Assembly (NCBI GenBank): GCA_000004695.1
Contig: CM000152.2
Coordinates: 5,216,001-5,280,000, forward strand
Length of the DNA stretch: 64,000 nt
Source of the DNA: Dictyostelium discoideum
Taxonomy: Eukaryota
Reading direction: 5' to 3'
The position numbers and the translations under genes were made by a program. The notes beneath the pieces were generated by a model. That model was not told the DNA's origin. It ran no database searches and saw only the letters and a program-made list of their open reading frames with translations. This document shows, piece after piece, positions 33,750-58,800 of the stretch. Every line of letters begins with the position of its first letter. The first letter of the stretch is position 1.

Positions 33750-34385
33750 TTAAAAAGCTCTTGCAGTTGGTGAACCAACAATACCTTCTTTTGATTTTAA
33801 TTTTGGAGAAGATGATAATTTCAAATTATCTTTTTCAATTTGTTGATGAAGGGAATGTTGAGTTGAGATTTGTTTTGGAGAGAAATTTACTTTAATTGGA
33901 TGAACATGATTGTTACAACTATAGTCAATATGAGTTGAATAGTCTCTTGATTTTGACAAGATTGATGGATCAGCTTGATATTCTAATAATGGTACGATTT
34001 GTTGAATATTTGTCCATTTGAATCTTAATTCATCGATTGATTTCAATGGTTTTCCTGGCAAATAAGAGTCAACATTGCTAAAGACGAATGTATCATAGGC
34101 ATCATAAACACTATCACTAATGTAACCCAATAAACCACCACCACTTGAAATGACACTAAAGTCATGATCGACTTTCAATGTGAATTTAATATATGATCCA
34201 CTTGGGAAATTGTGAATGAATCCTTTCAATTCTCTAGTTACTCTTTCCAAACCTCTCATTTTAAAGATTTCTCTAATTACCATGACCATCTCTTTAATAT
34301 CTTTGGTTGATAATTGTTCTTTCTTTATAATGAAATCACCAGTCTTTCTTTTGAGTGAAATTGATGTAGTGTAAATATTATTCAT
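33750..34385 (-). CDS. hypothetical protein (211 aa)
   Basis: Single ORF with coding-type codon usage. No family recognised. Confidence 0.5.
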   Translation of the reverse strand: MNNIYTTSISLKRKTGDFIIKKEQLSTKDIKEMVMVIREIFKMRGLERVTRELKGFIHNFPSGSYIKFTLKVDHDFSVISSGGGLLGYISDSVYDAYDTFVFSNVDSYLPGKPLKSIDELRFKWTNIQQIVPLLEYQADPSILSKSRDYSTHIDYSCNNHVHPIKVNFSPKQISTQHSLHQQIEKDNLKLSSSPKLKSKEGIVGSPTARAF

Positions 34386-37353: not shown

Positions 37354-37525
37354 TTAATTTTGAACTTCATTAGGAATAATATTATTAATATTATTATTAT
37401 CATCATTATTATTAATATTGTTATTACCATTATTATTATTAATATTATTATTAGGTTGCTCATTATTGTCATTGTTATTGTTATTGTTATTGTTATTGTT
37501 ATTGTTATTGTTATTGTCATTATTG

Positions 37526-37608
<83 letters not shown>

Positions 37609-37790
37609 TTGTTGATCATTTGGTCTATATGTAGGAAGGAGAGAGGTTAACATTGTCGAAAAAAATAGTACAATTTCTGATAAAAAGTCTTGTGGTCTTT
37701 GTTGAGGTTCTGCTCTTGGTTGTTGGTTTTGATTATTATTATTTTCATTGTTTATATTATTATTTATATTATCATTGTCATTATTATTTA

Positions 37791-37875
<85 letters not shown>

Positions 37876-38386
37876 TGGTTGTGGTTGTGGGTGTTGATTG
37901 TTATTATTATTATTATTATTATTATTGTTGTTGTTATTATTGTTTGGTCTTGGTAAAGGTGCAAAAAATATATTATAGCTGTTGTGGTAAAATAATGGTT
38001 GATTAGTAAAAAGAATAATAAATATATATAAACGTAGGTTCAATAAAAAAAAAAAAAAAAAAACCTTACATATAATAAAGTGCAATGCAAACGCCAACAG
38101 TTATCATTCTTTCCATTGAACCACCTTGTAAAAACAATGCTAAAAAGATAAACTTTACAATATTTCTAAGATTAATTCTAAATACTCTGACTCTTGGTTG
38201 TGCTGCTGCTGGTGCTGCCACAGCTGGTGCTGCTTGAGGTTGAGCAGGTGCTGCTGCTGTTGGTTGTTGTCTTGGCTGTTGTTGTTGCTGCTGTTGATCT
38301 AATCTTTGTCTTATTTGTTGAAGAGCTTGAAATTCAGCTTGTAAATGTGCTCTGTGTTGTAAACTACCATGACGATGATGGTTCAT
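37354..38386 (-). CDS. Asn/Gln/Ala-rich hypothetical protein with a central hydrophobic segment; at least 2 exons (5' end uncertain)
   Basis: Upstream ORF '...LQAEFQALQQIRQRLDQQQQQQQPRQQPTAAAPAQPQAAPAVAAPAAAQPRVRVFRINLRNIVKFIFLALFLQGGSMERMITVGVCIALYY' ends at a GTAAGG donor (about 38066 minus). An AT-rich intron runs to a 'ccacaacag' acceptor (about 37990). The next exon, 'SYNIFFAPLPRPNNNN...', has two long (AAT)n poly-Asn tracts. The frame is open upstream of the first Met as far as about 38620, so the true start may lie further 5'. Confidence 0.4.
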
Positions 38387-38614
38387 TGGTTGTGGTCTTA
38401 AATTTATAAGTTCTTGACGATTTAATTGTTGTTGTAAATATAATTGTTGATTTATTCTAAGACATTGGTCAGTTTTACTTAATTTTTCTTTTGATGTATT
38501 TTTCGATGATGATGATGCTGAATCCCCATCTGATGATGGGAAATAATAAAATGATTCTGGTGAGTTTATAAAAGAGTTATTATTTCTTAATAAAATTATA
38601 TCCCTTTGTGTATT

Positions 38615-38659
<45 letters not shown>

Positions 38660-38736
38660 AATTTGTAAATTGTTAATAAAATATAAAGTTTTTTTTTTTT
38701 TTTTAAAAAATAAATAAATAAATAAATAAAAAAAAC

Positions 38737-39100
38737 TTACATTAAACTTAATAATCTATTTAATGTATTTTGATCTAAACTTTCAATATCAATATTTAAA
38801 TCATTTAAAATTAATTTTGAATTTTCTTTTTTCTTTGATGAGTAACGTTGTAATTTGGTGAATTCTTGTTCTAAATATTTATGAGATTGTGAAAAGTGTT
38901 CTCTTAATTCGCTTAAATCTTTTTGATTCACATCATTTGAATCTTTATCGCTATCATTAATTGTATTGTTTTCATTTGCAAATGATTCTGCTATTGTTGT
39001 AGTTTGTAATGGTGATGATAATACTGGTGATGATGTAGATGATGATGAAGATGATGAAGGTGAAGCTGTTGTAGTAGTAGTAGTTGTAGTAGTTGTAGTT

Positions 39101-39132
<32 letters not shown>

Positions 39133-39651
39133 TGGTGATAATGATGGTGAAGTTGAAGAAGTAGCAGTAGTATTAGTATTAGTAGTTGTTGTTGGAAAAT
39201 TATCATTAAATGGATTTGGTATATTGAATGCATTTGAATATAAACCATTATTGCTATTGCTGTTACCATTATTATTACTATCACTATTATTTATTGTAGC
39301 ACTTGTTGAATTTGGTGATAATGATGGTGAAGTATTTGAATTTGAATTTACAGTTAAAGAATTTGGAGGTGATGGTGAAATTATTTTCTTTTTTAAAATT
39401 AAATGAATTGTATGAACAGATGAAGAGGTTGGTCTTTGTTTAAATACTTGATCCAACACTTGTTCATCTTCTAACATTTTACCTGCGAATATAAGCTTTT
39501 GGTCTGATATCAATGGTTTCTTATCATGTTGTTTGTTAATTATCTCTTTTAATTGATATACTGTACATGTATTATTTATATCCAATGATAAATGCTCTTC
39601 ATCTCCAAATAATACAATTTTAACTTGAACCAACTCCTCGTTGCTTGACAT
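38737..39651 (-). CDS. ubiquitin-like-domain protein with Ser/Thr/Asn-rich low-complexity middle
   Basis: N-terminus 'VQVKIVLFGDEEHLSLDINNTCTVYQLKEIINKQHDKKPLISDQKLIFAGKMLEDEQVLDQV' has the beta-grasp/ubiquitin-like pattern. The C-terminal 60 aa are helical and conserved-looking. Confidence 0.6.
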
Positions 39652-40429
39652 TTTTTTTTTTTTTTGAATTTATTTTAAGTTTTTTTTTTTTTTTTTGTAT
39701 TTTTTTTTTGGTATTTTTTTTATTTATCTCTTTTTTATTTATCTCTTTTTTATTTATTATCTCTTTTTTATTTATCTCTTTTTTATATTATCTCTTTTTA
39801 AAATTTATCTCTTTTCAAATCAATTTTTTTTTTTTTTTAATTTAAATTTATGAAGAACCAAAAAAAAAAAAAAAATAATAAAAAAAAAATAAAAAAATAA
39901 AAAATTTTTAAAAAAAAAAAAATAAAAAAAAAAAAAATTTGTGTGACGATGGTGGTATCTTTTTTTTTTTATTATCCAGAAATTTTTATTATTTCCATTT
40001 ATGGATTTTTTAAGTAATCCAAATATGTGTTTGGTTTTATTTGAATGATAACACTTTAATAAATCCTTGATCAGAAAATCAATCTATTTAAAAATGATAT
40101 GTATTGCTTTGGTTTTTAATAATTTTTTTTTTTTTTAAGGATTTTTGATCAAGAAAAATATTAAAAATAAAGAAATAAAAAAGCGCCAAACAAACTGAGT
40201 TAGTTTTTTTTTTTATGATAAAATTTATTTTTTAAAATGGATTTGGTTAATTTCTTTAATTCTATTTATTTATTTATTTATTTTTTTTTTTATTTTTTTT
40301 TTTCTTTTTTTTTTTCTTAACATCACAATCACAAATATCATAAATTTTTTTTCTAATTTTTAATTTTTTTTTTCTTAATGATCATAAAAAAAAAATAAAT
40401 AAAGAATTTTAAAAAAATAATGATAGCAT

Positions 40430-40463
<34 letters not shown>

Positions 40464-40783
40464 ATAACAATTTTCATAATGCAAAATAATCCAAACAGAA
40501 ATAAAATAGATATTTTTTCATTTAACTTTTCAATTTTGTTTTTTTTTTTTTTTTTTTTTAAATTTTATCTCAAAAAATTGATTTTTTCACTTATTTATGG
40601 CAAAGGGGCAGTTAAACGTCTAACGAAAAAGATTTGGAAATTTATTTTTTTTTTAATTTTTTTTTTTTTAATTTGTTTTTTTTCAATTTTTTTTTTCGAG
40701 TTTTGTTAGATTCATTTTTTTAAAATTTTTTTTTTTTTTGTTAGAAAGTTAATCTCACAACTCTAATATATATATATAATAAA

Positions 40784-41636
40784 ATGAATAAGTTAACAAT
40801 TTTATTCTTAATTTTGGCTTTAATTTCAGTCATTTATGCTCAACACAAATGTAAGTTATTTTCATTTTTTTTTTTTTGTTACTGTTTTGGAATTCCTTTT
40901 TTTTTTTTTTTTTACCAAGTGGTACGAAAAGACGGAAATTAAAATTTTTTTTTTTAAAAAAAAAAAAAAAATCAGAAAAAAGATTTCGGTGTTAACATTT
41001 ATTTAAATAATGGTTTTTTTTTATTTTCTTTTATTTTATTTTATCTTAATTTAAATCAATATAGTCCCATCATCATCTGAAGATTCATCATCAAATGATT
41101 CAAATAGCCAAGTAACTGGTTCACAATCATACTCTGGTTCACAATCCGATTCAAACTCAGGATCAGAATCCCACACAATTAACACCGGTTCATCATATTC
41201 TGGTTCTGGTTCTGGTTCAAGTGGTATTTCAGGCGGTTGTAAGTATTCTTTAAATTCCTTAATAAGGAAAGAAAAAAAAAAAAAAAAAAAAAGAATTGTA
41301 GAAATTAACCAAATTCATTTTAAAAAAAATAGCTGGTTCAGGTTCAGGTTCAGGTTCAGGCTCAGGTAGCGGTTCAGGTTCAGGTTCAGGTGCTGTCAGT
41401 GGTTCACAATCAGGTTCAGGTGCTGTCAGTGGTTCACAATCAGGTTCAGGTGCTGTTAGTGGTTCACAATGTAATTATATTTTGAATTAAAATTAAAAAA
41501 TAAAGATATGTATTGACTCAAATTTTTTATTTTCTTATTTTAGCTGGTGTCCAAACTGGTTCACAATCAGGTGCTGGTAGTGCTTCAGGTGCTTTCACTG
41601 GTAACCCATGTAAGTATACTTTAAATATTTTTTAAT

Positions 41637-41689
<53 letters not shown>

Positions 41690-41884
41690 CAAGATAAATT
41701 AAAAAGCACATTGAAACTAACAATTAATTTATTATTACTTTTATTCTCTCTTTAAATAGCTGGTTCTCAATCTCAAGAAATTAATACTGGTTCATCATAC
41801 AGTGGTAGTGGTAGTGGTGCCCCAACTGGTGCCGCTACTGGTTCAGGTTCAGGTTCAGGTTCATCAGGAACAGTTTACTATTAA
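40784..41884 (+). CDS. secreted Ser/Gly-repeat protein; 5 exons (40784..40850, 41065..41258, 41333..41470, 41544..41609, 41760..41884), all introns phase 1
   Basis: Signal peptide '[22 protein letters not shown]'. Every exon ends '...T|GTAAGT' (one GTAATT) and every downstream exon begins 'AG|CTGGT', rebuilding a Ser codon. Exon 3 encodes '(GSGSGS)n [27 protein letters not shown]'. The protein ends '...[13 protein letters not shown]'. Intron 4 contains (TA)23 (41641..41686). Confidence 0.65.
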
Positions 41885-42025
41885 ATAAATTTTAAATTAT
41901 AACGAAATCATATTTTTCCAGTTTTCAAAACTTGGTCACGAAACAGTACTATTTCTTGACGATTTTTTATTTAATTATTGATGATACATTTATAGTTTTT
42001 ATAATTTTTTTAAAGAATTTATTAT

Positions 42026-45000
42026 TTAATTTTTAAAGATATAGTTTATATGATTTTGAATGATTTTTTCATTAACCATTCCTCCTTCATATGAGTTCAT
42101 TGATTGTAATAATTCTTTAGTTTTCTTTGAAACACCAAATCCATGACCCAAGTTATAAACACCATTGAGTCTATCTAATGAATGGAATGTTTTGAACTTT
42201 ATACATGATAGAATCTTTGATTGATTAATGATATTCTTCCATTGTTCATATTCAACCATTTCACATCCATATTGCTTTTCCAAGAATGAGAATGATGATT
42301 TAATTGATGAAACTTCACTATTTAAACTATAGATATTTAATTGATTTGAAGATGATTTATTCCAACATTTTTCATTTCCAATCATTTTAATTGTATTTAA
42401 ACCTATCCAACCAATTGGTGATGTTAATATGTTTTTATCAATATTTGGATACTTTTTAACTGCATAACATGATTGAATAATTAGTTGGAAGAAATCAGAA
42501 TCATGACCAATACCTGTTTCTTCATGTGAAAATATAATTGGTAGTCTAATTAACATTGATGGAATACCTCTTTTTGCTGCTTCTCTAAATAAATTTTCAA
42601 CAACTACTTTACTTTTCATATAACCACCTGGTAAATTATTAATATTTTCAATTGTTGGTATTACTGTTTCTTCATCAAATTCTTTACAATTTGGTGATTC
42701 AAAGAATACTGATATTGAACTAAATCCTACAATTGGTTTTTGATAATCACCAGTTGTTGAAAGTTTAATCAATTCAATTAAACCACCAATATTTACAACT
42801 TTACTCTCTTCATAATTTGATGCCAAATTAATATCGGCACCTGAATTAATTATTAAATTAATTTGGTTTGAAACAAAACCAAAATCTAATTTTGATAATC
42901 CTAATAATGGTGATGCTAAATTACCAACGATTACTTTAACTTTTGATAATTCAAATTCATTGTGAAAGTGATATAGTTTATGATGTTTCAAATTATTAAT
43001 TATTGCATTGATTGGATTTGGTTCTGATTTTTTATTTCTAATTAAACAATATACAACTGAACAGTTTGGTGATTTAATTAAGTTTGATAATAAATGAACA
43101 CCTAAAAATCCTGTTGCACCAGTTAAAAATACTTTTGAGTCATTTCTAAAATCAATTGGATTCATTTTAATTGCTTGAATTGATTCATCTAATTTCATTT
43201 CATTTCTCCAATATTCTAAACTTGGTGCTGAATCTTTTTTAATAATTTTTTTTGATTTTCCTTTAGTTTCATTTGAATCTAGTTTTTTGATTTGTTCTAA
43301 AATAATTTGAATATTTACTCCAATTGTATTATTTTGTAATTGTTGAAGTGTAATTACATTTGATTTATTTTCTTTATCAATGAAATTCTTTAATTGTACT
43401 GAAGTTAATGAATCTGCTCCATATTCACCTAAACGAATATCTGTGTTGATCTTTGATTGTTCAATTGATAAGAGTTCTGAAATTTTATTCAAAAATTTCA
43501 TTTGGATACTCTCTGAAATACTAATATTTTCACCACCATTATTATCATTATCTTTTTCCTTGATAGAATTTAAAATGAAATCTAATCTTTGGAAAGTTGA
43601 TGTTTCTGATGCGAATTTCTTAATTGAATCATAGTTAAATTTACTAACAATTAAATTTGAATATTTATTTGAATTTTGAAGTTGTAAATCTAATGAACCT
43701 AAAATTATATTTGTTGGAATTGGAATGAAACCTTGATCATCTAACATTTTTGAAACTGAATCATTTCTTGATACGAAACCTGATGATTTAATTGTTCCCC
43801 AATTTGTGCACGTTGATGGTAAACCAATTGATTTACGATATCTTGATAGTGAATCTAATACTAAATTTGCAGAAACATAAGTACATTGGTTGAATGAGCC
43901 AAATAATGATGCAATCGATGATGCCATAACAAATTGTTTTAATTTCCATGATTTCTCAATTGAGATTTCATGTAAATTAATTGCACCCATCGTTTTAGCA
44001 TTATGTGAAATATCTAATGATTCAATATCGATTTCTTCTACTTCTTTAGTTACTTGAGTGAACGCGTAATGGAATATTGAATCAATGTTATCAATATTTG
44101 GATTTTCTAATAAAATTTGATTAATTGATTTTCTCATTTCAATTGAATCACCAACATCTACGATCTTGAAATGGAACTTGGTGTTATTATCCTTTCTTGA
44201 TATTGTTTTATTGATTAATAGTTCTAACTCCCATTTTAATGATGATTTTGATAAAATGATAATGTTTTCAAATGATTCTGTTGGAGGTGAATATTTAATT
44301 AACCATTTTAAGATTTCTAAAATAATACCTGATTGACCTGTAATAATTATATTTTTACCAATTATATTTTTTGTATCAATTTTGAAATCATATTTTAATA
44401 TTGTATGATTCTTTTCATTGTTATCTGATTCAATGAGTTGATTTAATAATCCATCACTACCGATACTACCATTTGAACAACTATGATCTAATACAATTTT
44501 ACCAATATGTTTTCTTTGATTAATATATTCAATTGCTTCTTTGACATTTTCAATCTGGAATGTTGTTATCGGAATTAGTTTCACTTTGTTTTCATTTAAA
44601 GCATTTGAAATAGATTTTAATAATCTTGAAACTACTCTTTTATTAATATGCATAAATTCGATATTATGATAACTCTTGTTAAATTTGAAATTGTTGAAAT
44701 TTAAAAATTCATTGTTATTTAAATGGGTGATTGAGAGATCAATGATTTTACCTCTTTCTTTTAAACATAAAAAGTTTGAATGTGTAAATTCATTTGGTAA
44801 TGTATTTATAATTAAATCTACTCCGTTGAATTTACCAGTTGTACCATAAAGTTGATTTAATTTTGATTTGATTTCATTTACATAGTTTTTATTTCTTGAT
44901 GAATAAATTCCAGTTATGAATGATCCATAATTATCAATTAAATATTGTTCTTTATCTTTTGAACCTACTGTGACGAAAATTGGTGATTTATGACCTTTCC

Positions 45001-48000
45001 ATTTTAATATTTCTAATGTTGCTAAACCAATACCACCTGTTGCTGAGTGAATTAAAATGACTTCATCATCATCGATATTAAAATTACCAATGTTGAACAT
45101 ACCATGAAGACATGTTGAAAAAATGATTGGTAATGACGCTGCTTCAATATGACTAATATTATTTGGTTTATGTGAAACATAAAGTACATCAGTTATAACA
45201 TGAGATGCAGTTGCATCGTGTGATACACCAAAAACATTATCGCCTACTTTAAATTCACAATTTTTATTTTCATCAGATATTCTTGTGATAATACCTGAAA
45301 ATTCGAGACCAAGTGGATTTTTAGATATTGATACATTTTCATCAATAACAACTAAACCACGATAAATTAAATAATCTTTATAATTAATACCTGTTGCTAA
45401 AACTTTGACTTCAATTTCATTCTTTTTTAATTTCTTTGGTTTTGATGCTAATTTATATTCTAAATTTGTTGAATCTAAGAGTGTCATAAAATCATTATCT
45501 TCGAATGAATTTGAATTGAAGTTTGATTTTATATTCTTTTCATTCTTTAATATTTCATAATAAATTGAATTATTTCTAATTATATATTCTCTTTGAATAT
45601 GGTTATTTGAATTTTCAATCAATTGATTAATGATTTTATTTAATAATGATGATATCGATAATTGATTATCAAAATCGATTGAATATAGATTTAAACTTGG
45701 AAATTCATTAAAGTATCTTGATGCACCTATTATTGATGATGATAAATAGTTTTTGATTTGTGAATCAATAGTAATTAATACATGTTTACATGTTAAACTA
45801 TGTTTTAAAAGTTGTTGATTAATTTCAATATATTCCATTGTAATTTGTTTGAAATTATTCATTTCTAATTGTTCCATTGATTTAATAAAGTAAATTATTG
45901 AATCATTTGTTATTGAAGGTAATAGTTGATTAAATTCATTAATATTTGATATTGTTGTTTGTTTGCGATTGGTATGATTATTTGAAATTAATTTCTTAAA
46001 TTCATTTGTATATTTTGAATGTTTTTCACAATAAATGATAATATTATCATTTTTATTGTTTGGAACAACTGTTAATTCATTTGATAATATTGTAGATTTT
46101 TGTGATTGTATTACTTTGTTCGATTTCTGAATTTTGTTCTCATTAAAACCTACACCGATTAAATTATTGATATTAAATCGGATACCAATATCATCTTCAA
46201 TTATTAATAATAATAATCCATTTGAAGAAAGAATATTAAATATTGGTTTGATGATTGTTTCATCATTATTATTATTAATGATAATATCATAGTATGATGG
46301 TTTTAACTGGGTTATATCATTTTTAAAGATTAAACTTGAATCGTGTAAAGTTGGAAGTTTATCATTTGAATTATCAATAATTGTAAATTCTATATCGATT
46401 TCTTGTAAACTATTATCGAAAATTTGATTTAATGCTTCAATGATTTGTTTTGATAGTTCTGAATCTGAAAATGATTGTAAAATTCTAAAAACAATCTTTT
46501 CATTTATTATTGGTTTGATTGTTTGTTTAATAATTTCTGTAACTGTGTTGCTGCTGCCACTGCTGCTAGAAGTTTCATTATTATCAATGGATAAAATATT
46601 AACTAATGAATCTTTACATTGTAAATTATTTGTAAATAGTTCATTTGTAGGATTATTAAGTAATAATTCATCAATCAATGGAAGAGTTGAACGGAATGAT
46701 ATATGTTCTATTTCTAATAACTTTGTACCATCTTCTAATAAAACTAAAACTGATGATTTATAGCTATCTGCTTCCAAGGAGATGAATTTTGCTTGACAAT
46801 AGATATTCTTATATTTTAATTTGTCAGTTGGTATATTTTCAGAATAAACTTTTAAACCTTCAAGTCTTTCAAATACAAACTGGCTTGAATTTGTAATGAA
46901 TCCAGTGATGGCTTGTATACAGTTATCTAATAGCGCTATATTGAAAAATGATTTGTCAAATGTTTGATAAACAGGTTTACCATTGATATCAAAGTTTTCG
47001 TAGTTTATTTGTATTCTTGCAATTGTAAGATCATTGCCAAAGTGAAATTCTTCAATTCCTTGGAAAGTTCCTAAATGAGTGATACCTGATCTTAATTTAG
47101 AGTACTTATAAACTTCTTGTTTGGAAAGGGTAGTAAAATTACATTCTGATAGCAATTGATTTATATTATATTTAGATGAGTGATTATTATTATTATTATT
47201 ATTATTATCTTTTAATGATATAAGTTGAAAGTTACCAGTACATGTTTGAACCCATTGATTTGCTTTATTGTCTTTTATGTTGAATGTAACTCTATAATCA
47301 GTGTTACCTAATTGATAAACGTTGGTTTGTAAAATATGTTTGACATTTTCTTTTAAAACAAATGGTGCTAAAAATTCCAAGTTATTAATTACAATATCTT
47401 TATTTGGGTAAAGTTTCATAATATTATCAGCATATCCAATACCTGGGAAGTAATATTTTCCTTTTACAATATGGTCTTTTAAATATTTGAATGGATTTCT
47501 ATTTATATCGATTATTGATTCATATGATTTGTTATTTGATGAATAGTTAATCATTGATTTACCTAAGTTGTTGAAAACGTTTGGTCCATTTAATCTATAT
47601 TGTTCAAAGTTAATATCAACTTTCCAATAGTATTGTTCATCGAATTGATAGTTTGGTAAAATTATAGTGCTATTGTTTCTAATGGAATTGACATCATCAT
47701 CATTGTGATTGAATTGGCATTTAAAGTTTATATCATAACCTAAACAATAAATTTGTGAAATTGTTGAATGAATTTCATCTAAATCATTGGAGTTCTTTTT
47801 GTTTGTTGATGTTAATACTGAAACTGAATTAAAGTAACTTGATGATTTTGGTATCATTTGTTTTAAATAAAATGATAAACTTGGATGTGGTGAAACTTCA
47901 ATAAATATTAATTCATTACCAAGTTTATTATTTTCAATGTGTTGATATAAATTTGAAATAGTTTGAGAGAATCTGACAGGTTGTATTATATTTTCATAAA

Positions 48001-50453
48001 CATAACTTGAATTGAATGGAGTAGTTTCATGATTAAATAAATTAGTTGTAACTGTTGAAAATGTTGGAATTGTTGATTGTCTTGATGGTATTTCTAATGG
48101 TAAAATTTCATTTTTGGTTGAGTTTTGGCTACTTGTGTGGAATGATGATAATGAACCTAAAAATGCGCAAAAGATATTATTTTCTTTTAAGTCTAATGAT
48201 ATCTCTTTTAAAATATTTTCATTACCTGCAATTACAATTGATGTTGGTGAATTATAGCATGCAACTTCAATTGTTGGATATTTATTTGAATAAAGTTCAA
48301 TAAATTCTGAATGACTGATATTGACTGATAACATTTTACCACATCCATTTGTATTATTTTGAGAAATTGATCTGTGGTAAATTAATTTACAAACTGTTTG
48401 GAAATCTACCATACCTGAACAATATGATGTTGCTATTTCACCTAAACTATGACCAACAATGAATGATACATTGATACCCCAATGTTTGTATAGTTCAAAT
48501 AATGATATTTGTAACATTAATATCGATGGTTGAGCGATTATTGGTTGATGGATTGATATAATGTCATCATCTTTAATTGATCTTAATTTATCTAAAACTG
48601 AGTATCCATAGTATTTACTTAACTCTTTATTGAATTTGTCCATCGATGATCTGAATATTGGTTCACATTCATAAAGTTGTTGAGCCATTTTATTCCATTG
48701 TGAACCTTGACCTCCGAAAACAATAACAATCAATGGTTGATTTCTTTTAATTGTAATATTTGAGGATTTGTCATTGCTTGTTTTAAAGTACTTGTTTTTA
48801 GTTTTTAATTGATCCCAATTACTTGAAATTAAAACTGATCTTTGATATAGTTTCTTTGATTTTGAATAAATTTGATTCTTAACAAACTCTTTGAATGAAT
48901 TTGTAGAAAGATTATTATCATTTATTATTAAGTCTTCATAATTTTTTAATGATTTTACTGAATTGGCTGAAAATGGTATTAAAAATATTTGTTGTTGCGA
49001 TTCAATTGGATAACTAGGGTTATTACCATTTAGACTGATTGAGTGTTCAATAAATTGTGATAAAATTAAACAACAATTTGAGCCAGTTACACCAAAGTTA
49101 TTAATAACCATTGATACTGGTTTTTCATTAATATTTGTAAATGGTATTGCTTCTGTTACAACTTTAATATTCCAATCTTTAAAGTTAATCTTTGGATTTG
49201 GTTGATCAAAATTAACATTTGGTGCATAATGTTTATTTTTAAACATTAAACAACATTTGATTAATGATGCAACACCTAATATTAATATTAATATTTATAA
49301 AAAAAAGAGTTAAAAATTAATATATATATTTTTTTTTTATATGGTTTATAAATGGTTATAGCTTACCACTTGCAGCTTCACAATGACCAATATTAGATTT
49401 GAGTGATCCAATGAGTAATGGTTTAGATGGTGTTGATGTTGTTGATGAATTTAGAGCCATTGATACACCTTCTACTTCAATTGGATCACCTGTTGGTGTT
49501 CCTGTACCATGACATTCTACGAAACTAATATCTGATGCTTTCATATTTGCACTTTTCAATGCTAATTTGATATTATCAGATTGTGATTGTTTGGATGGTG
49601 AATAAAAGTTTGATTTATCATTTAAACCACCTCCATCGACATTTGAACTAAATGAATTAATTACACAATAAATATTATTACCATCTCTAATTGCGTCTGA
49701 TAATGGTTTTAAAATTACAATACCACAACTCTCTGCACGAATGTAACCATCTGCTTCTGAATCAAATGGTTTACATTTACCTTTTTTACTTAACATATTT
49801 AAAAATGAAAATGATTTTGAAACGTATGGATCAAGTAATAAACTGGCACCACCCACAATTGATAGATTTGAAGTACCATTTTGAATTGATTGAAAACCCA
49901 TTGTAATTGAATTCAATGATGAAGAACATGCTGTATCAATTGTCATTGATGGACCTCTGATATCATATGAAAATGATAATCTATTTGAAATGGTATGAAG
50001 AACATTTGATGCGAAATAATTTTCAGATGTTTCATTAAAGTCTCTATTTGTTGTTGAATAATCTAATGTTGAGCAACCAATGAAACAAGATGTATTTGAA
50101 CCTCTAATATCGATTGGATCGATGAATGCATCTTCTAATGCTTCCCATGTACACTTTAATAGTAATCTTGTTTGTGGATCCATTAGGGGTACTTCTGATG
50201 GATTGATTGCGAAATGAACTGGATCGAAATCACTCCATTCTTTTAATGGTAATAATCCACCAAATTTATTATTAACTTCACCGAGTAAATTGATATTGTC
50301 ACTCCATCTTTCTGATGTTTCAACAATACCACTGAATCCATTCTTTAAATTATTCCATAAATGTGAAACACTACCATTATTAATTGATTCTTTACCTTGT
50401 GGAATTCTAAATCCAATACCTACAATGGCAATTTCTTTATTTCCAAATTCCAT
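42026..50453 (-). CDS. type I iterative polyketide synthase, copy A (2778 aa); complement(42026..49275, 49367..50453); KS-AT-DH-linker-ER-KR-ACP-R
   Basis: KS: Cys '[13 protein letters not shown]' (about 49930) plus '[12 protein letters not shown]' and 'GHCEAASG'. A 91-nt intron (donor GTAAGC at 49366..49361, acceptor 'ttag' at 49279..49276, phase 1) lies just before '[19 protein letters not shown]'. AT: 'GQGSQW' and 'GHSLGE' (about 48440). DH: 'HxxxGxxxxP' as '[15 protein letters not shown]' (about 47460). ER (MDR): '[15 protein letters not shown]' (about 45035). KR: '[17 protein letters not shown]' (about 44335). ACP: '[14 protein letters not shown]' (about 43410). C-terminal reductase: '[18 protein letters not shown]' (about 43115) with about 390 aa beyond it. 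There is no obvious SAM motif in the about 600-aa DH-ER spacer. Confidence 0.9.
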
Positions 50454-50996
50454 TTTCTTTTAATACACTAAAAACATTGATTCCAATAGTTGCTGATTAC
50501 ATAACGAAGGGAATGAGAGTGGACAATTAATTTTTAATCTTTTTATTTAAAAATATGGTGCTTTTTTGTTTTGTAAGGAATGTTAGAAATTATTACTATT
50601 TATTTATTTATTTTTATTTATATTTTAATATTATTACCATAAACACTTGTGTAAATAAATACATACATATAAATTATTTTTGTTAATTTTTTAAAAAGAA
50701 AAAAAAAAATTTTAAAAAAAAAAATTTAAAAAAAAAATGAAAAAAGAAAAAAAGAAAAAAATTATTAATAAAAAAAAAAAAAAAAAATAGAAAAAATATT
50801 ATTTAATAATAATTTAGTGGTGGTTTAAAACAATATATTTAATTTTATACTATATGATTGTTTAAAACAATTTGGAAATTATATTCTTTAATTTTTGGTT
50901 AATTTTTTTTTTTTTTTTTTTATCTTATTTTTTTTTTTTTTATAATTATTCTAATTAATTTAATATTATGATTTAAAAATAAAAAATTAATATTTG

Positions 50997-51080
50997 AAAA
51001 GTGATTGGTGGTAAAAAAAAAAAAAAGTGATTGGTGGTAAAAAAAACTTACTTAACTTTTTTTTTTTTTCTTTTTTACCA
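50997..51080. repeat. direct repeat 'gtgattggtggtaaaaaaaa' x2 plus inverted copy 'ttttttaccaccaatc' (hairpin-capable), about 550 bp upstream of the PKS-A ATG
   Basis: Directly visible. Non-AT core 'gattggtgg / ccaccaatc'. Confidence 0.6.
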
Positions 51081-52487
51081 CCAATCTCTTTTCATATATT
51101 AATTTTATATTTTTAAATCATAATATTAAATTAAAAAAAAATAAATTTATTTGCACAGAAAACTTAACAAAATATTAAAATATAATAAATAAAATTTAAT
51201 TTTAATAAAAGCTGTTAGTTCTTTTTTTAAATTAATAAATTTTATTAAAAAATAAGATAAAAATTAAAAAAAAAAAAAAAAATATATATTCAAAAATTAA
51301 ACTTATTTTATAATTAAAAAAAAAAAACATATTTTATTAAAATATAATTAATACTAAAAAATAAGATAATATAGGAATGTTAAAAATTAATTAAATAATA
51401 AATATTTAAAATTTATTATTTAATAAAAATTATTAAAAAATAAGATTTATTATAAAAATGTAACTTTAAAAAAAAAAATAATAAAATATATTGAAAAATA
51501 AGATGTATAATAAAAAAAAAAAATTTAAACATTTTATAATTTTAGATTTTATTATTAAACATCTTTAAAAATAAGATAAAAAATTCGTATGATAAATTTT
51601 AATAATTATAATCTTCTTTTGTTGGCTATAAAAGTAAGTTTTTAATTTTATTTTTATATTTAATAATATCTATTATTGTTTCGTTTTAATTTATTTTTAT
51701 TTTTTTTAATTTTTGTTTTTATAATTATACAATATCTATTATTATTATTTTTAATTTTTATTTTTATATCTATTATTAATTCATTTTAATTTTTTTTTTT
51801 TTTTTTAATTTTTATTTTTATTATAATGTAAAAAATTATGGTCACCCAAGTAGAAAATTAAAAGAAATAAATTTGTAAAAAAAAAGAAGCATTATTTTAT
51901 AATTCTTTATCTCTTTCTTTTAAAATAGTACCTTTTGTTCTTTTAATTTTTATTTTTTTCACGTAACAATGATAGTTCTAATTACGTTTGTGTTGGCATT
52001 CTTAATTTCCAAGTTACGTTCAATTTGAGAAATGTTTCAGTCTTGAAACAGAAAATCATTTAAACCATTGCCTTGTAACCCTTACCAAAGGCAGAGAAGA
52101 AAACATTAATTACTCTTCAAGAATGGGTCAAAAATAGATATAATGTAAATTATTTATGTATTATTCAATATACTAATTTTTAAAAAAAAAATATCATTTT
52201 TTATACTAATTAAAAACTAATATCATTTTTTTTCTCCATATTATATATTTTTTATTATTTTATATATTAAATATATTATAATATAAAAATATTATATTAA
52301 TTTTTAACAATTTTCTTTGGGCTCTATAAAGCTCCCCACAAAACCATTTCCAAGTCAATCTCCTGCTGATTCTGCTGGTAAATGAATCAGATTCCGATTT
52401 AAATTAACCAAGCAATAAATTTTTTTTTTTTTATTATCAACTGTCTCATCAACTTCCAACAACAATTTCCTCCATTATTTGTATCAT

Positions 52488-52600
52488 TATTGTATCATCA
52501 CTGTTTCATTATAATAAATAATAATAATAAAATTTTCCAATATTTTTTTTTATTATTTATTATAATGAAACGGTAATGATACAATAATGATGAAACAGTA
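52488..52600. repeat. imperfect about 45-bp inverted repeat ('tgtatcattattgtatcatcactgtttcattataataaataat ... attatttattataatgaaacggtaatgatacaataatgatgaaacagtaatgataca'), 200-300 bp 3' of PKS-B
   Basis: Directly visible. Arms are about 80-90% complementary with a short spacer. Confidence 0.55.
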
Positions 52601-52802
52601 ATGATACAATTATCAATCAATAATCATATCTTAGTTAAACTAATTAATTTTTATAATAATTCATAATATTTGTAAATATTAAATTAAAAAAAAAAAAAAA
52701 AAAAAAAATAATTTAAAAATAAATATGGATAATAAAAATTTAGGTGGTGTAAAAAAGGTGCTTTGGATTTTAAGAAAAATGAAAAAACTAAGATTTGTTT
52801 AT

Positions 52803-55800
52803 TTAATTTTTAAAAATATAGTTTATATGATTTTGAATCATTTTTTCATTGACCATTCCTCCTTCATATGAGTTCATTGATTGTAATAATTCTTTAGTTT
52901 TCTTTGAAACTCCAAATCCATGACCCAAGTTATAAATGTTATATAAATCATCTAATGAATGGAATGTTTTTAATTTTATACATGATAGAATCTTTGATTG
53001 ATTAATGATATTCTTCCATTGTTCATATTCAACCATTTCACATCCATATTGCTTTTCCAAGAATGAGAATGAAGGGTTCATTGCTGAAACTTCACTATTT
53101 AAACTATAGATATTTAATTGATTTGAAGATGATTTATTCCAACATTTTTCATTTCCAATCATTTTAATTGTATTTAAACCTATCCAACCAATTGGTGATG
53201 TTAATATGTTTTTATCAATTTTTGGATACTTTTTAACTGCATAACATGATTGAATGATTAACTGCAAGAAATCAGAATCATGACCAATACCTGTTTCTTC
53301 ATGTGAGAATATAATTGGTGGTCTAATTAACATTGATGGAATACCTCTTTTTGCTGCTTCTCTAAATAAATTTTCAACAACTACTTTACTTTTCATATAA
53401 CCACCTGGTAAATTATTAATATTTTCAATTGTTGGTATTACTGTTTCTTCATCAAATTCTTTACAATTTGGTGCATTAAAGAATACTGATATTGAACTAA
53501 ATCCTACGATTGGTTTTTGATAATCACCAGTTGTTGAAAGTTTAATTAATTCAATGAAACCACCAATATTTACAACTTTACTCTCTTCATAATTTGATGC
53601 CAAATTAATATCGGCACCTGAATTAATTATTAAATTGATTTGATTTGAAATATAATCAAAATCTAATTTTGATAATCCTAATAATGGTGATGCTAAATTA
53701 CCAACTATAACTTTAACTTTTGATAATTCAAATTCATTGTGAAGTTGATATAGTTTATGATGTTTCAAATTATTAATTATTGCATTGATTGGATTTGATT
53801 CTGATTTTTTATTTCTAATTAAACAATATACAACTGAACAATTTGGTGATTTAATTAAGTTTGATAATAAATGAACACCTAAAAATCCTGTTGCGCCTGT
53901 TAAAAATACTTTTGAATCATTTCTAAAATCAATTGGATTCATTTTAATTGCTTGAATTGATTCATCTAATTTCATTTCATTTCTCCAATATTCTAAAGTT
54001 GGTGCTGAATCTTTTTTAATAATATATTTTGATTTTCCTTTAGTTTCATTTGAATCTAGTTTTTTGATTTGTTCTAAAATAATTTGAATATTTACTCCAA
54101 TTGTATTATTTTGTAATTGTTGAAGTGTAATTACATTTGATTTATTTTCTTTATCAATGAAATTCTTTAGTTGTACTGAAGTTAATGAATCTGCTCCATA
54201 ATCACTTAAACGAATATCTGTGTTGATCTTTGATTGTTCAATTGATAAGAGTTCTGAAATTTTATATAAAAATTTCATTTGGATACTTTCTGATATACTA
54301 ATATTTTCACCACCATTACTGTCATTATCTTTTTCTTTGATTGAATTTAAAATGAAATCTAATTTTTGGAAAGTTGATGTTTCTGATGCGAATTTCTTAA
54401 TTGAATCATAGTTAAATTTACTAACAATTAAATTTGAGTATTTATTTGAATTTTGAAGTTGTAAATCTAATGAACCTAAAATTATATTTGTTGGAATTGG
54501 AATGAAACCTTGATCATCTAACATTTTTGAAACTGAATCATTTCTTGATACGAAACCTGATGATTTAATTGTTCCCCAATTTGTGCATGTTGATGGTAAA
54601 CCAATTGATTTACGATATCTTGATAATGAATCTAATACTAAATTTGCAGAAACATAACTACATTGGTTGAATGAGCCAAATAATGATGCAATCGATGATG
54701 CCATAACAAATTGTTTTAATTTCCATGATTTCTCAATTGAAATTTCATGTAAATTAATTGCACCCATCGTTTTAGCATTATGTGAAATATTTAATGATTC
54801 AATATCGATTTCTTCTACTTCTTTAGTTACTTGAGTGAATGCATAATGGAATATTGAATCAATGTTATCAATGGTTGGATTTTCTAATAAAATTTGATTA
54901 ATTGATTTTCTCATTTCAATTGGATCACCAACATCCACACTATTGAAATGGAATTTAGTGTTATTATCCTTTCTTGATATTGTTTTATTGATTAATAGTT
55001 CTAACTCCCATTTTAATGATGATTTTGATAAAATGATAATGTTTTCAAGTGATCCTGTTGGAGGTTTTGAAGGTGAATATTTAATTAGCCATTTTAAGAT
55101 TTCTAAAATAATACCTGATTGACCTGTAATAATTATATTTTTACCAATTGTATTTATTGTATCGATATTAAAATCATATTTTAATATTGTGTGATTCTTT
55201 TCATTGTTATCTGATTCAATGAGTTGATTTAATAATCCATCACTACCGATACTACCATTTGAACAACTATGATCTAATACAATTTTACCAATATGTTTTC
55301 TTTGATTAATATATTCAATTGCTTCTTTGACATCTTCAATCTGGAATGTTGTTATTGGAATTAGTTTTAATTTATTTTCATTTAAAGCATTTGAAATGGA
55401 TTTTAATAATCTTGAAACTACTTTTTTATTAATATGCATAAATTCAATATTATGATAACTCTTGTTGAATTTGAAATTGTTGAAATTTAAAAATTCATTA
55501 TTATTTAAATGGGTGATTGAGAGATCAATGATTTTACCTCTTTCTTTTAAACATAAAAAGTTTGAATGTGTAAATTCATTTGGTAATGTATTTATAATTA
55601 AATCTACTCCGTTGAATTTACCAGTTGTACCATAAAGTTGATTTAATTTTGATTTGATTTCATTGACATAGTTTTTATTTCTTGATGAGTAAATTCCAGT
55701 TATGAATGATCCATAATTATCAATTAAATATTGTTCTTTATCTTTTGAACCTACTGTGACGAAAACTGGTGATTTATGACCTTTCCATTTTAGTATTTCC

Positions 55801-58800
55801 AATGCTGCTAAACCAATACCACCTGTTGCTGAGTGAATTAAAATTACTTCATCATCATCGATATTAAAATTACCAATGTTGAACATACCATGAAGACATG
55901 TTGAAAAAATGATTGGTAATGATGCTGCTTCAATATGACTAATATTATTCGGTTTATGTGAAATCCAAAATGCATCAGTTATAACATGAGATGCAGTTGA
56001 ATCGTGTGATACACCAAATACATTATCGCCTACTTTAAATTCACAATTTTGATTTTCATCAGATATTCTTGTGATAATACCTGAAAATTCGAGACCAAGT
56101 GGATTTTTAGATATTGATATATTTTCATCAATAATGACTAAACCACGATAAATTAAATAATCTTTATAATTAATACCTGTTGCTAAAACTTTGACTTCAA
56201 TTTCATTCTTTTTTAATTTCTTTGGTTTTGATGCTAATTTATATTCTAAATTTGTTGAATCTAAGAGTGTCATAAAATCATTATCTTCGAATGAATTTGA
56301 ATTGAAGTTTGATTTTATATTCTTTTCATTCTTTAATATTTCATAATAAATTGAATTATTTCTAATTATATATTCTCTTTGAATATGGTTATTTGAATTT
56401 TCAATCAATTGATTAATGATTTTATTTAATAATGATGATACTGATAATTGATTATCAAAATCGATTGAATATAGATTTAAACTTGGAAATTCATTAAAGT
56501 ATCTTGCTGTACCTATTATTGATGATGATAAATAGTTTTTGATTTGTGAATCAATAGTAATTAATACATGTTTACATGTTAAACTATGTTTTAAAAGTTG
56601 TTGATTAATTTCAATATATTCCATTGTAATTTGTTTGAAATTATTCATTTCTAATTGTTCCATTGATTTAATAAAGTAAATTATTGAATCATTTGTTATT
56701 GAAGGTAATAGTTGATTAAATTCATTACTATTCGATATTATTTGCTTGGAATTGGTATGATTATTTGAAATTAATTTCATAAATTCATTTGTATATTTTG
56801 AATGTTTTTCACAATAAATGATAATATTATCATTTTTATTGTTTGGAACAACTGTTAATTCATTTGATAATATTGTTGATTTTTGTGATTGTATTACTTT
56901 ATTTGAATTTTGAATTTTGTTTTCATTAAAACCTACATTGATTAAATTATTGATATTAAATTGAATACCAATATCATCTCCAACTATTAATAATAGTCCA
57001 TTTGAAGAAAGAATATTAAATATTGATTTGATGATTGTTTCATCATCACCATCATTATTATTATTAATGATAATATCATAGTATGATGGTTTTAACTGGG
57101 TTATATCATTTTTAAAGATTAAACTTGAATCGTGTAAAGTTGGAAGTTTATCATTTGAATTATCAATGATTGTAAATTCAATATCGATTTCTTGTAAACT
57201 ATTATCATCGAAAATTTGATTTAATGCTCCAATGATTTGTTTTGATAATTCTAAATCTGAAAATGATTGTAAAATTCTAAAAATAATTTTTTCATTAATA
57301 ATTGGTTTGATTGTTTGTTTAATAATTTCTGTAACTGTATTGCTGCTGCTGCTGCTAAAAGTTTGATTATTATCAATGGATAAAATATTAACTAATGAAT
57401 CTTTACATTGTAAGTTATTTGTAAATAATTCAGTTGTAGGATTATTAATTAATAATTCATCAATCAATGGAAGAGTTGAATGGAATGATAAATGTTCTAT
57501 TTCCAATAACTTTGTACCATCTTCTAATAAAACTAAAACTGATGATATATAGCTATCTGATTCCAAGGAGATGAATTTTGATTGACAATAGATATTTTTA
57601 TATTTTAATTTGTCAGTTGGTATATTTTCAGAATAAACTTTTAAACCTTCAAGTCTTTCAAATACAAACTGGCTTGAATTTGTAATGAATCCAATAATGG
57701 CTTGTGCGCAATTATCTAATAGCGCTGTATTGAAAAATGATTTGTCAAATGTTTGATAAACAGGTTTACCATTGATATCAAAGTTTTCGTAGTTTATTTG
57801 TATTCTTGCAATTGTAAGATCATTGCCAAAGTGAAATTCTTCAATTCCTTGGAAAGTTCCTAAATGAGTGATACCTGATCTTAATTTAATGTACTTGTAT
57901 GCATCTTGTTTTGAAAGAGTTGTAAAATAACATTCTGATAGTAATTGATTTATATCATATTTTGATGAGTTATGATCTTTTAATGATATAAGTTGAAAGT
58001 TACCAGTACATGTTTGAACCCATTGATTTGTTTTATTATCTTTTATGTTGAATGTGACTCTATAATCAGTGTTACCTAATTGATAAACGTTGGTTTGTAA
58101 AGTATGTTTGACATTTTCTTTTAAAACAAATGGTGCTAAAAATTCCAAGTTATTAATTACAATATCTTGATTTGGGTAAAGTTTCATAATATTATCAGCA
58201 TATCCAATACCTGGGAAGTAATATTTTCCTTTTACAATATGGTCTTTTAAATATTTGAATGGATTTCTATTTATATCGATTATTGATTCATATGATTTGT
58301 TATTTGATGAATAGTTAATCATTGATTTACCTAAGTTGTTGAAAACGTTTGGTCCATTTAATCTATATTGTTCAAAGTTAATATCAACTTTCCAATAGTG
58401 TTGTTCGTCGAATTGATAGTTTGGTAAACTGATATTGACCTTGCTGTTTCTAATGGAACTGACATCATCATTGTGATTGAATTGACACTTGAAGTTTACA
58501 TCATAACCTAAACAATAAATTTGTGAAATTGTTGAATGAACTTCATCTAAATCATTGGAGTTTTTTTTGTTTGTTGATGTTAATACTGAAACTGAATTAA
58601 AGTAACTTGATGATTTTGGTATCATTTGTTTTAAATAAAATGATAAACTTGGATGTGGTGAAACTTCAATAAATATTAATTCATTACCAAGTTTATTATT
58701 TTCAATGTGTTGATATAAATTTGAAATAGTTTGAGAGAATCTGACAGGTTGTATTATATTTTCATAAACATAACTTGAATTGAATGGAGTAGTTTCATGA

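Follow-up and report, generated by a model that had tools for sequence, protein, structure and literature searches.

Attachment of N-acetylglucosamine-1-phosphate (GlcNAc-1-P) to serine (Ser) has been documented in Dictyostelium discoideum (PMC6994554), and GlcNAc-1-P Ser-rich domains are reportedly found in lysosomal cysteine proteinases of the cprG/CP7 type (Mehta 1996, Ord 1997). Here we describe a D. discoideum gene for a small protein rich in Ser and glycine (Gly), hereafter the Ser/Gly gene and the Ser/Gly protein, which is located at positions 40784-41884 on the forward strand of a 64,000-nt stretch of chromosome 3 (GenBank assembly GCA_000004695.1, contig CM000152.2, positions 5,216,001 to 5,280,000; hereafter the window). 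The protein resembles the cprG/CP7-type proteinases in organism, in its long Ser-rich low-complexity stretch and in the secretory pathway, to which a predicted signal peptide would direct it, but the stretch is an insert in a papain-family enzyme in the proteinases, whereas it makes up the whole mature Ser/Gly protein. Acceptor stretches for GlcNAc-1-P are Ser-rich, repetitive and part of secretory proteins, and a Ser-rich repetitive stretch behind a signal peptide is also what the Ser/Gly gene encodes. By analogy, the Ser-rich domain encoded by cprG (a cysteine proteinase gene), in which GlcNAc-1-P reportedly occurs, is the closest mechanistic precedent.

Small secreted low-complexity proteins rich in Ser and Gly are a familiar kind, to which the Ser/Gly gene belongs. 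Vertebrate serglycin is likewise small, with a signal peptide and a central Ser-Gly run, and serves purely to carry dense Ser-linked chains, a role that the Ser/Gly protein may share; there is no homology between the two, their gene structures differ, and the likeness is an analogy only. To our knowledge, vertebrate-type glycosaminoglycan chains have not been described in Dictyostelium. The proteophosphoglycans of Entamoeba, which is also an amoebozoan, and of Leishmania have Ser-rich backbones with phosphodiester-linked glycans and are again analogs rather than relatives, the major ones of Entamoeba being much larger than the Ser/Gly protein. Moreover, the major Entamoeba proteophosphoglycans are anchored by glycosylphosphatidylinositol (GPI), according to a title cited in PMC6994554, whereas the Ser/Gly protein has no hydrophobic C-terminus. 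Mucin-like and "glue" proteins (New_glue, PF21827) share with it a signal peptide and short repeats rich in hydroxy amino acids, but the Ser/Gly protein is not rich in Thr or Pro.

Within Dictyostelium, the hssA/2C/7E family also comprises small, Gly/Ser-rich proteins of unassigned function, but these are, as the family is generally described, about 90-100 residues long, without a signal peptide and with Cys, whereas the Ser/Gly protein has a signal peptide and no Cys. Spore-coat proteins such as SP60, SP70 and SP96 are defined by Cys-rich repeat modules. An earlier reading of the window, hereafter the original prediction, had likened the product to spore-coat or extracellular-matrix proteins, a resemblance that we could not uphold, as the Ser/Gly protein contains no Cys and matches no Pfam family above threshold. 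At the level of gene structure, the nearest likeness is to the metazoan exon modules flanked by phase-1 introns on both sides (1-1 exons), with which the Ser/Gly gene shares the phase-1 flanks, a first intron just after the signal peptide, an extracellular product (here predicted) and in-frame changes of exon number. In contrast to the metazoan modules, its cassettes are of low complexity, seem to occur in one gene only and are found in an intron-poor amoebozoan host.

Gene structure

Located on chromosome 3 of D. discoideum, the Ser/Gly gene truly codes for a protein, with five exons and four GT-AG introns, all of them in phase 1. Splicing of 40784-40850, 41065-41238, 41333-41470, 41544-41609 and 41760-41884 yields a 570-nt open reading frame encoding 189 residues and a stop codon, and when splice combinations were enumerated under the constraints of a GTA donor, an AG acceptor and an AT-rich intron of 55-450 nt, a single model yielding 189 residues was obtained. 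An independent call in the annotation of GCA_054883475.1 gives a 189-residue product over the identical 1101-nt span. The five exons and uniform intron phase of the original prediction are confirmed by the splicing, the unique model and this annotation. In public assemblies the gene is already annotated as encoding a hypothetical protein, which is uncharacterized. It is probably DDB_G0282025, an unverified identifier that we assign because of the gene order DDB_G0282021, a gene with a ubiquitin domain, the Ser/Gly gene and the polyketide synthase (PKS) genes pks19 (DDB_G0282027) and pks21 (DDB_G0282029). The literature text searched did not mention DDB_G0282023, DDB_G0282025, DDB_G0282027 or peptide strings of the protein.

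Exon 1 (40784-40850) holds the ATG, the predicted signal peptide followed by QHK, and the first base of codon 23, and is 85-100% identical across orthologs. Intron 1 (40851-41064; 214 nt, 16% GC; T/GTAAGT...TATAG/TC, slashes marking the splice boundaries) splits a Phe TTC codon three codons past the predicted signal-peptide cleavage site, and its position is kept in five genomes. Exons 2, 3 and 4 are 1-1 symmetric with lengths divisible by 3. The first of these (41065-41238; 174 nt) encodes a Ser-rich acidic peptide with one N-D-S sequon and the first copy of a 13-residue module. Exon 3 (41333-41470; 138 nt) contains (GGTTCA)9.5 at 41335-41391, which encodes (GS)n, continues with three copies of a 30-nt unit (41380-41470, 98% identity) encoding a 10-residue peptide three times, and varies in length, in frame, between strains. 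Exon 4 (41544-41609; 66 nt), itself 80-100% identical across orthologs, encodes a 22-residue peptide, a diverged copy of the exon 3 unit, and exon 5 (41760-41884) encodes the second 13-residue module, (GS)n and the conserved C-terminal GTVYY, the stop codon being at 41882-41884.

A Ser TCT codon is split by each of the remaining introns, namely intron 2 (41239-41332; 94 nt; T/GTAAGT..AATAG/CT), intron 3 (41471-41543; 73 nt; T/GTAATT..TTTAG/CT) and intron 4 (41610-41759; 150 nt; T/GTAAGT..AATAG/CT), with putative branch sites ATTAAC in intron 2 and ACTAAC in intron 4. The GC content is 12-16% in the four introns, 22% in exon 1 and 40-51% in exons 2-5, the whole window having ~22% GC and many poly-N/poly-T coding tracts. 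According to the original prediction, every intron had a GTAAGT donor and split a Ser codon as T/..AG/CT; the donor is found in introns 1, 2 and 4 and is replaced by GTAATT in intron 3, and the split Ser codon is found in introns 2-4 and not in intron 1. The repeats that it had described were recovered as the 30-nt unit and (GGTTCA)9.5, but its view of exons 2-5 as repeat cassettes does not extend to exon 2, which is mostly non-repetitive and Ser-rich and of which only the tail recurs, in exon 5. Intron 4 also contains a (TA)24 microsatellite (41639-41686), which the corresponding intron lacks in D. discoideum ACTFIW and in the remaining genomes and which looks like a strain-specific expansion. 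A CArG-like sequence in intron 2, CCTTAATAAGG, was dropped as a candidate, having 7 instead of 6 central A/T positions and not being conserved.

Conservation in related genomes

Syntenic loci were fetched with PKS orthologs as anchors, giving four complete loci and two partial ones. The complete loci contain orthologs of 186 residues in D. firmibasis (L009:14631-15966, reverse strand), 191 residues in D. citrinum (L010), 192 residues in D. discoideum ACTFIW (L011) and 191 residues in D. cf. discoideum ACTFIZ (L012), and the partial ones have a 192-residue gene at the same place, L004 showing the ACTFIW gene again and L008 that of ACTFIR. In every genome the gene is placed between the last PKS of an array and the ubiquitin-domain gene and converges on the PKS. 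Homology-guided models with all introns in phase 1 reproduced the annotated length of each ortholog. There are five exons in the D. discoideum and D. citrinum genomes and six in D. firmibasis, the introns always being in phase 1; the five introns of D. firmibasis delimit internal exons of 216, 48, 33 and 54 nt, all 1-1. The additional D. firmibasis intron, with acceptor AATAG/CTG, falls in the counterpart of D. discoideum exon 3.

In a five-genome alignment, intron positions and phase were conserved across the clade of D. discoideum, D. citrinum and D. firmibasis. Compared to D. citrinum, exons 1, 2, 4 and 5 are 90-95% identical, the repeat-rich exon 3 is 81% identical and the introns are 62-76% identical; compared to D. 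firmibasis, the respective values are 79-85% for the exons, 67% for exon 3 and 60-67% for the introns. All 43 gap runs in exons are multiples of 3, as opposed to 27-42% of those in introns, and the ratio of nonsynonymous to synonymous substitution rates (dN/dS) against the window gene is 0.29-0.52. Differences between strains in exons 3 and 5 consist of in-frame indels of 6-15 nt. In introns 2 and 4, the D. discoideum-clade genomes keep TTAAC/CTAAC-like branch-site motifs, of which D. citrinum and D. firmibasis have degenerate forms. AX4 and D. firmibasis are described as roughly as far apart as humans are from mice, at 50-100 million years (PMC12745789). As MAKER was supplied with Trinity transcripts and the D. 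discoideum proteome when D. firmibasis was annotated (PMC11193728), the model in that species derives either from a transcript or from an annotated protein of D. discoideum.

Origin of the phase-1 exons

Similarity within the gene crosses its exon-intron junctions. The junction of exon 3 and intron 3 is 77% identical to that of exon 4 and intron 4 over 43 nt, the first 18 nt from the donors of introns 2 and 4 are 94% identical, the start of exon 4 is a divergent version of exon 3's 30-nt unit, and the end of exon 2 is similar to the beginning of exon 5 (72% over 57 nt), corresponding to the recurring 13-residue module. The sequence GTAAKTATWYTTTRAAT is common to the donors of introns 2, 3 and 4 and is not present at that of intron 1. 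Likewise, introns 2-4 share the context T/GTAAKT...AG/CTGG in a Ser TCT codon, the opening codons of exons 3, 4 and 5 read (T)CT GGT (Ser-Gly), and the last base of each of exons 2, 3 and 4 is position 1 of a Ser codon.

As the simplest interpretation, we propose that a symmetric (1-1) exon would have been tandemly duplicated inside the gene together with its downstream intron, that the GGTTCA and 30-nt repeats would later have slipped in frame and altered the exon lengths, and that intron 1 would be a separate "signal-peptide" intron. Judged from the sequence, an architecture arising by tandem intragenic duplication of exon and intron has good support but is not proven, the support remaining moderate because the similar stretches are short and AT-rich. 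The duplication or shuffling of modules suggested by the original prediction is accordingly narrowed to duplication within the gene, to which the junction-spanning similarity points, and shuffling between genes found no backing, since no other gene with the modules was found in the window, in nine related loci or in the protein searches (the last being a weak negative).

If cassettes were copied in this way, uniform phase would follow automatically. By chance, four introns would all be in phase 1 in ~0.4-1.5% of cases at a phase-1 frequency of 0.25-0.35, and this is less unusual at the local rate, phase 1 being found in four of the six introns inferred for neighboring genes (pks19, 1; a Sec1-family gene, 1; a PIG-U gene, 1 and 1 in an ambiguous model; the ubiquitin-domain gene, 2 and 2). 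Since phase 1 is locally common, uniform phase is only mildly unusual and in itself a weak signal. What stands out is rather the intron density, with four introns in 0.57 kb of coding sequence (~7 per kb) compared to ~0.4 per kb in the neighbors (6 introns in ~16 kb), together with a cassette architecture that has been kept over tens of millions of years.

Protein product

The N-terminus consists of MNK, a 14-residue hydrophobic core and then VIYA/QHK, for which heuristic criteria predict a 19-residue signal peptide: the n-region is charged, the h-region has at least 10 residues, and small residues occupy positions -1 and -3. The best 11-residue Kyte-Doolittle window, at the N-terminus, scores 3.3, all windows elsewhere score at most 0.4, and the mature protein has no transmembrane or GPI-type segment. 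Of its 170 residues, 37% are Ser and 26% are Gly, forming 35 Ser-Gly dipeptides; it contains no Cys, five Tyr, one Lys, no Arg and one N-X-S sequon, its isoelectric point is ~4.3, and unmodified it would have a mass of ~15 kDa. The signal peptide and the Ser/Gly-rich product that had been predicted are thus both recovered. Conserved islands of the protein are a 14-residue stretch, the two 13-residue modules, an 11-residue stretch and the C-terminal GTVYY.

Homology searches with the full 189-residue protein gave 8000 low-complexity candidates and searches with the N-terminal 69 residues gave four, none of which scored in either case, and phmmer with the exon 2 peptide gave no matches among 1.84 billion cluster representatives. 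In Pfam, nothing was above threshold for the 189-residue protein; New_glue (PF21827) reached 15 bits (E = 0.02), which is below its 31-bit gathering threshold and mainly due to the signal peptide, and serglycin (PF04360) gave no match at E <= 1. The clustered protein collection lacks the 189-residue protein and its four annotated orthologs, although the control neighbor DDB_G0282021 and proteins encoded next to the orthologs in their assemblies are present, and since the collection misses even annotated orthologs, these database negatives are weak and uninformative. Very low-complexity proteins seem to have been dropped from the clustered collection, leaving homology searches blind to them.

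The Ser/Gly protein is most likely a secreted or lumenal, acidic and disordered scaffold heavily modified on Ser, as far as its sequence can tell. It would enter the endoplasmic reticulum via a cleavable signal peptide and, because no transmembrane or GPI-type segment is present, would leave it as a soluble 170-residue polypeptide that is acidic, Cys-free and probably disordered. The polypeptide may scaffold a dense Ser-linked modification, in the form of either GlcNAc-1-P-Ser phosphoglycosylation or O-GlcNAc-type mucin glycosylation, and the modified scaffold would then contribute a hydrated polyanionic component, either to a secreted matrix or to the lumen of endolysosomes.

Alternative explanations

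The low complexity of the sequence is so pronounced, and the searches of the protein collection so devoid of homologs, that the gene could be suspected to be a prediction artefact, in which a non-coding region of hexanucleotide and 30-nt microsatellites was stitched into an open reading frame. However, the exon with the ATG and the signal peptide, all splice sites, the reading frame and the C-terminal end have been kept across lineages said to be ~50-100 million years apart (PMC12745789), indels in exons are always multiples of 3, dN/dS is below 1, and conserved promoter-proximal blocks and an AATAAA at the stop codon accompany the gene. Because the ortholog models, the conservation of exons and introns, the gap runs, dN/dS, the divergence time and the basis of the MAKER annotation combine, an artefact is very unlikely. 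It is also hard to credit that the 1-1 exons are mobile modules which, like those of metazoan extracellular proteins, were acquired from other genes or passed to them by exon shuffling. Phase-1 introns flank every internal exon, and mobile domains in animals favor phase-1 introns (PMC3488318), but the exons are low-complexity repeats without folded domains, and all detectable similarity lies within the gene. In tblastn searches without low-complexity masking, the modules were not found in other genes of the window or of nine related loci (~215 kb), matches being confined to the gene itself, its orthologs and Ser-rich tracts of other genes of the locus such as the ubiquitin-domain neighbor, and the protein searches found no similar module either. 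We consider it somewhat probable that a real five-exon gene, intragenic cassette duplication and a secreted Ser-modified scaffold together provide the explanation, which is the best that we can offer. Several observations weigh against it: the similarity between introns is short and AT-rich, with 13 of 20 matches past the donor hexamer compared to 7-10 of 20 in other intron pairs; the extra D. firmibasis intron may, without an outgroup to polarize it, have been gained in that species or lost from the lineage of D. discoideum; the modification and the localization of the protein are predicted only; and the inferred gene identifier is absent from the searched expression and proteome supplementary tables that list pks19 and/or DDB_G0282021.

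As regards the product, it could instead be an unmodified structural or adhesive protein, similar to sericin, silk or glue, whose Ser/Gly repeats themselves would assemble into hydrogen-bonded sheets or a sticky coacervate, as part of the slime sheath, stalk tube or spore coat, and whose Tyr could be cross-linked. The combination of a signal peptide with GS-rich repeats would suit such a protein, as would the five Tyr, including those of the invariant C-terminal GTVYY and of the two INTGSSYSG modules, and the match to New_glue, a family from Drosophila, which is below threshold at 15 bits (E = 0.02). Yet that match is far under the 31-bit cut-off and chiefly reflects the signal peptide, the protein has no Cys and none of the Cys-rich or cellulose-binding modules of Dictyostelium coat and sheath proteins, and a protein with 37% Ser is unlikely to stay unmodified in the Dictyostelium secretory pathway, and we therefore regard an unmodified structural protein as unlikely, though not far-fetched. 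A more specific and distinctly less likely proposal is that of a dedicated amoebozoan scaffold, similar to serglycin or proteophosphoglycans, whose sole role would be to carry dense GlcNAc-1-P or O-glycans on Ser-Gly, whose 1-1 exons would allow length variation by in-frame skipping or cassette gain and loss, and for which the adjacency to the PKS genes and the ACGAAA-containing blocks might reflect shared regulation. Even less credence can be given to a functional tie between the gene and the pks19/pks21 array, for instance as a secreted carrier or matrix for a polyketide, with the tail-to-tail order maintained for co-regulation. The distance to the last PKS stop codon is indeed 141-179 nt in all five genomes with a full locus, despite varying PKS copy number, and pks19 responds to bacteria in published RNA-seq data listed in a supplement (PMC7078664), but extensive synteny is found among these close relatives (PMC12745789), making adjacency the null expectation, the neighbor upstream is conserved to the same degree, no promoter is common to convergent genes, and our search found no co-expression data for the Ser/Gly gene. 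The convergence on the PKS that the original prediction had pointed out is correct, the two stop codons being 141 nt apart in the window, and its view that the adjacency is probably coincidental remains the reasonable one, because synteny among close relatives predicts adjacency.

The value of these results is modest, in that a hard-to-predict low-complexity gene model is confirmed by comparative evidence. The gene offers a clean and small non-animal example of a secreted protein that would have grown by copying symmetric phase-1 cassettes of exon and intron among neighbors with ~0.4 introns per kb. If its product were a major phosphoglycosylation substrate, it would also provide a simple handle on Ser-GlcNAc-1-P biology in Dictyostelium. 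With a single Lys and no Arg in its mature form, the protein would escape tryptic proteomics, and such proteins, invisible to tryptic proteomics and absent from a large clustered protein collection, are easily overlooked systematically.

Flanking sequences and neighboring genes

Alignment of the 450 nt 5' of the gene in five genomes revealed four conserved blocks on the forward strand. Block TTTTATCTCAAAAAATTGAT (40563-40582) is nearly invariant amid divergent AT-rich DNA, and block AACGTCTAACGAAA (40615-40628), which holds one ACGAAA, is identical in all five genomes including D. firmibasis, both being candidate promoter elements. A third block, TCGAGTTTTGTTAGATTC (40696-40713), is conserved in the same alignment, and the conserved leader GTTAGAAAGTTAATCTCACAACTC (40740-40763) follows an oligo-T run and is likely to contain the transcription start or 5' untranslated region; a T run followed by a leader is typical of Dictyostelium promoters. 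All four contain G/C, are invariant or nearly so from D. discoideum to D. firmibasis, and lie in the 1.1 kb between the Ser/Gly gene and the ubiquitin-domain gene, which is transcribed divergently. Within intron 1, the 20-nt block ACGAAAAGACGGAAATTAAA (40924-40943, forward strand) is conserved throughout the five genomes, as compared to only 60-69% identity for the remainder of the intron in D. citrinum and D. firmibasis. It has no conserved reading frame and no Rfam match, and may be a regulatory element. At the 3' end, an AATAAA (41884-41889, forward strand) overlaps the stop codon and is a likely poly(A) signal. As read from the DNA, the upstream blocks, the intron 1 block and the AATAAA would fit an expressed and regulated gene.

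The motif ACGAAA occurs in four sense-strand copies within 1.8 kb, where ~0.3 would be expected, and in 16 copies in the 64-kb window. The four sites, at 40623, in the intron 1 block (40924-40943), at 41902 and at 41938, possibly represent a cis-regulatory motif. An Rfam scan of 40300-42100 gave one match only, at chance level.

The upstream neighbor (37354-39651, reverse strand) has 693 residues in the public annotation, its ubiquitin-like N-terminal region preceding very long tracts that are poly-Asn, poly-Thr or Gln/Pro/Ala-rich. Two introns were inferred for it, both in phase 2, and the length of the protein varies from 639 to 766 residues among the five genomes. Further upstream, a single-exon gene at 33750-34385 is exactly DDB_G0282021 and is also found in GCA_054883475.1. 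On the other side, pks19 (DDB_G0282027; 42026-50453, reverse strand; 2778 residues) lies tail-to-tail with the Ser/Gly gene, and its sequence is also present in public records as KAM9950443.1. It was identified through its 90%-identity cluster, of which the 2778-residue pks19 protein of D. discoideum AX4 is a member, and together with DDB_G0282021 it assigns the window to the AX4/AX2 lineage. Its one phase-1 intron (49276-49366), AGT G/GTAAGC...TTAG/GT GTT, lies within the ketosynthase motif GHCEAASG/VASLIK. Expression of pks19 was up-regulated in some conditions of bacterial exposure, with log2 fold changes of ~1.0 and 2.2 in the supplement of PMC7078664, and the inferred identifier of the Ser/Gly gene is not among the rows of that supplement that the analysis covered.

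The PKS array (42026-61315, reverse strand) comprises two copies, pks19 and pks21, in the window, in ACTFIW and in ACTFIR. In the stretch fetched from D. citrinum there are at least three full-length copies, with a gene of the Arf GTPase family between two of them, and in D. cf. discoideum ACTFIZ the full-length copies number at least five, besides fragments. Protein identity among the copies of the array is 81-93%.

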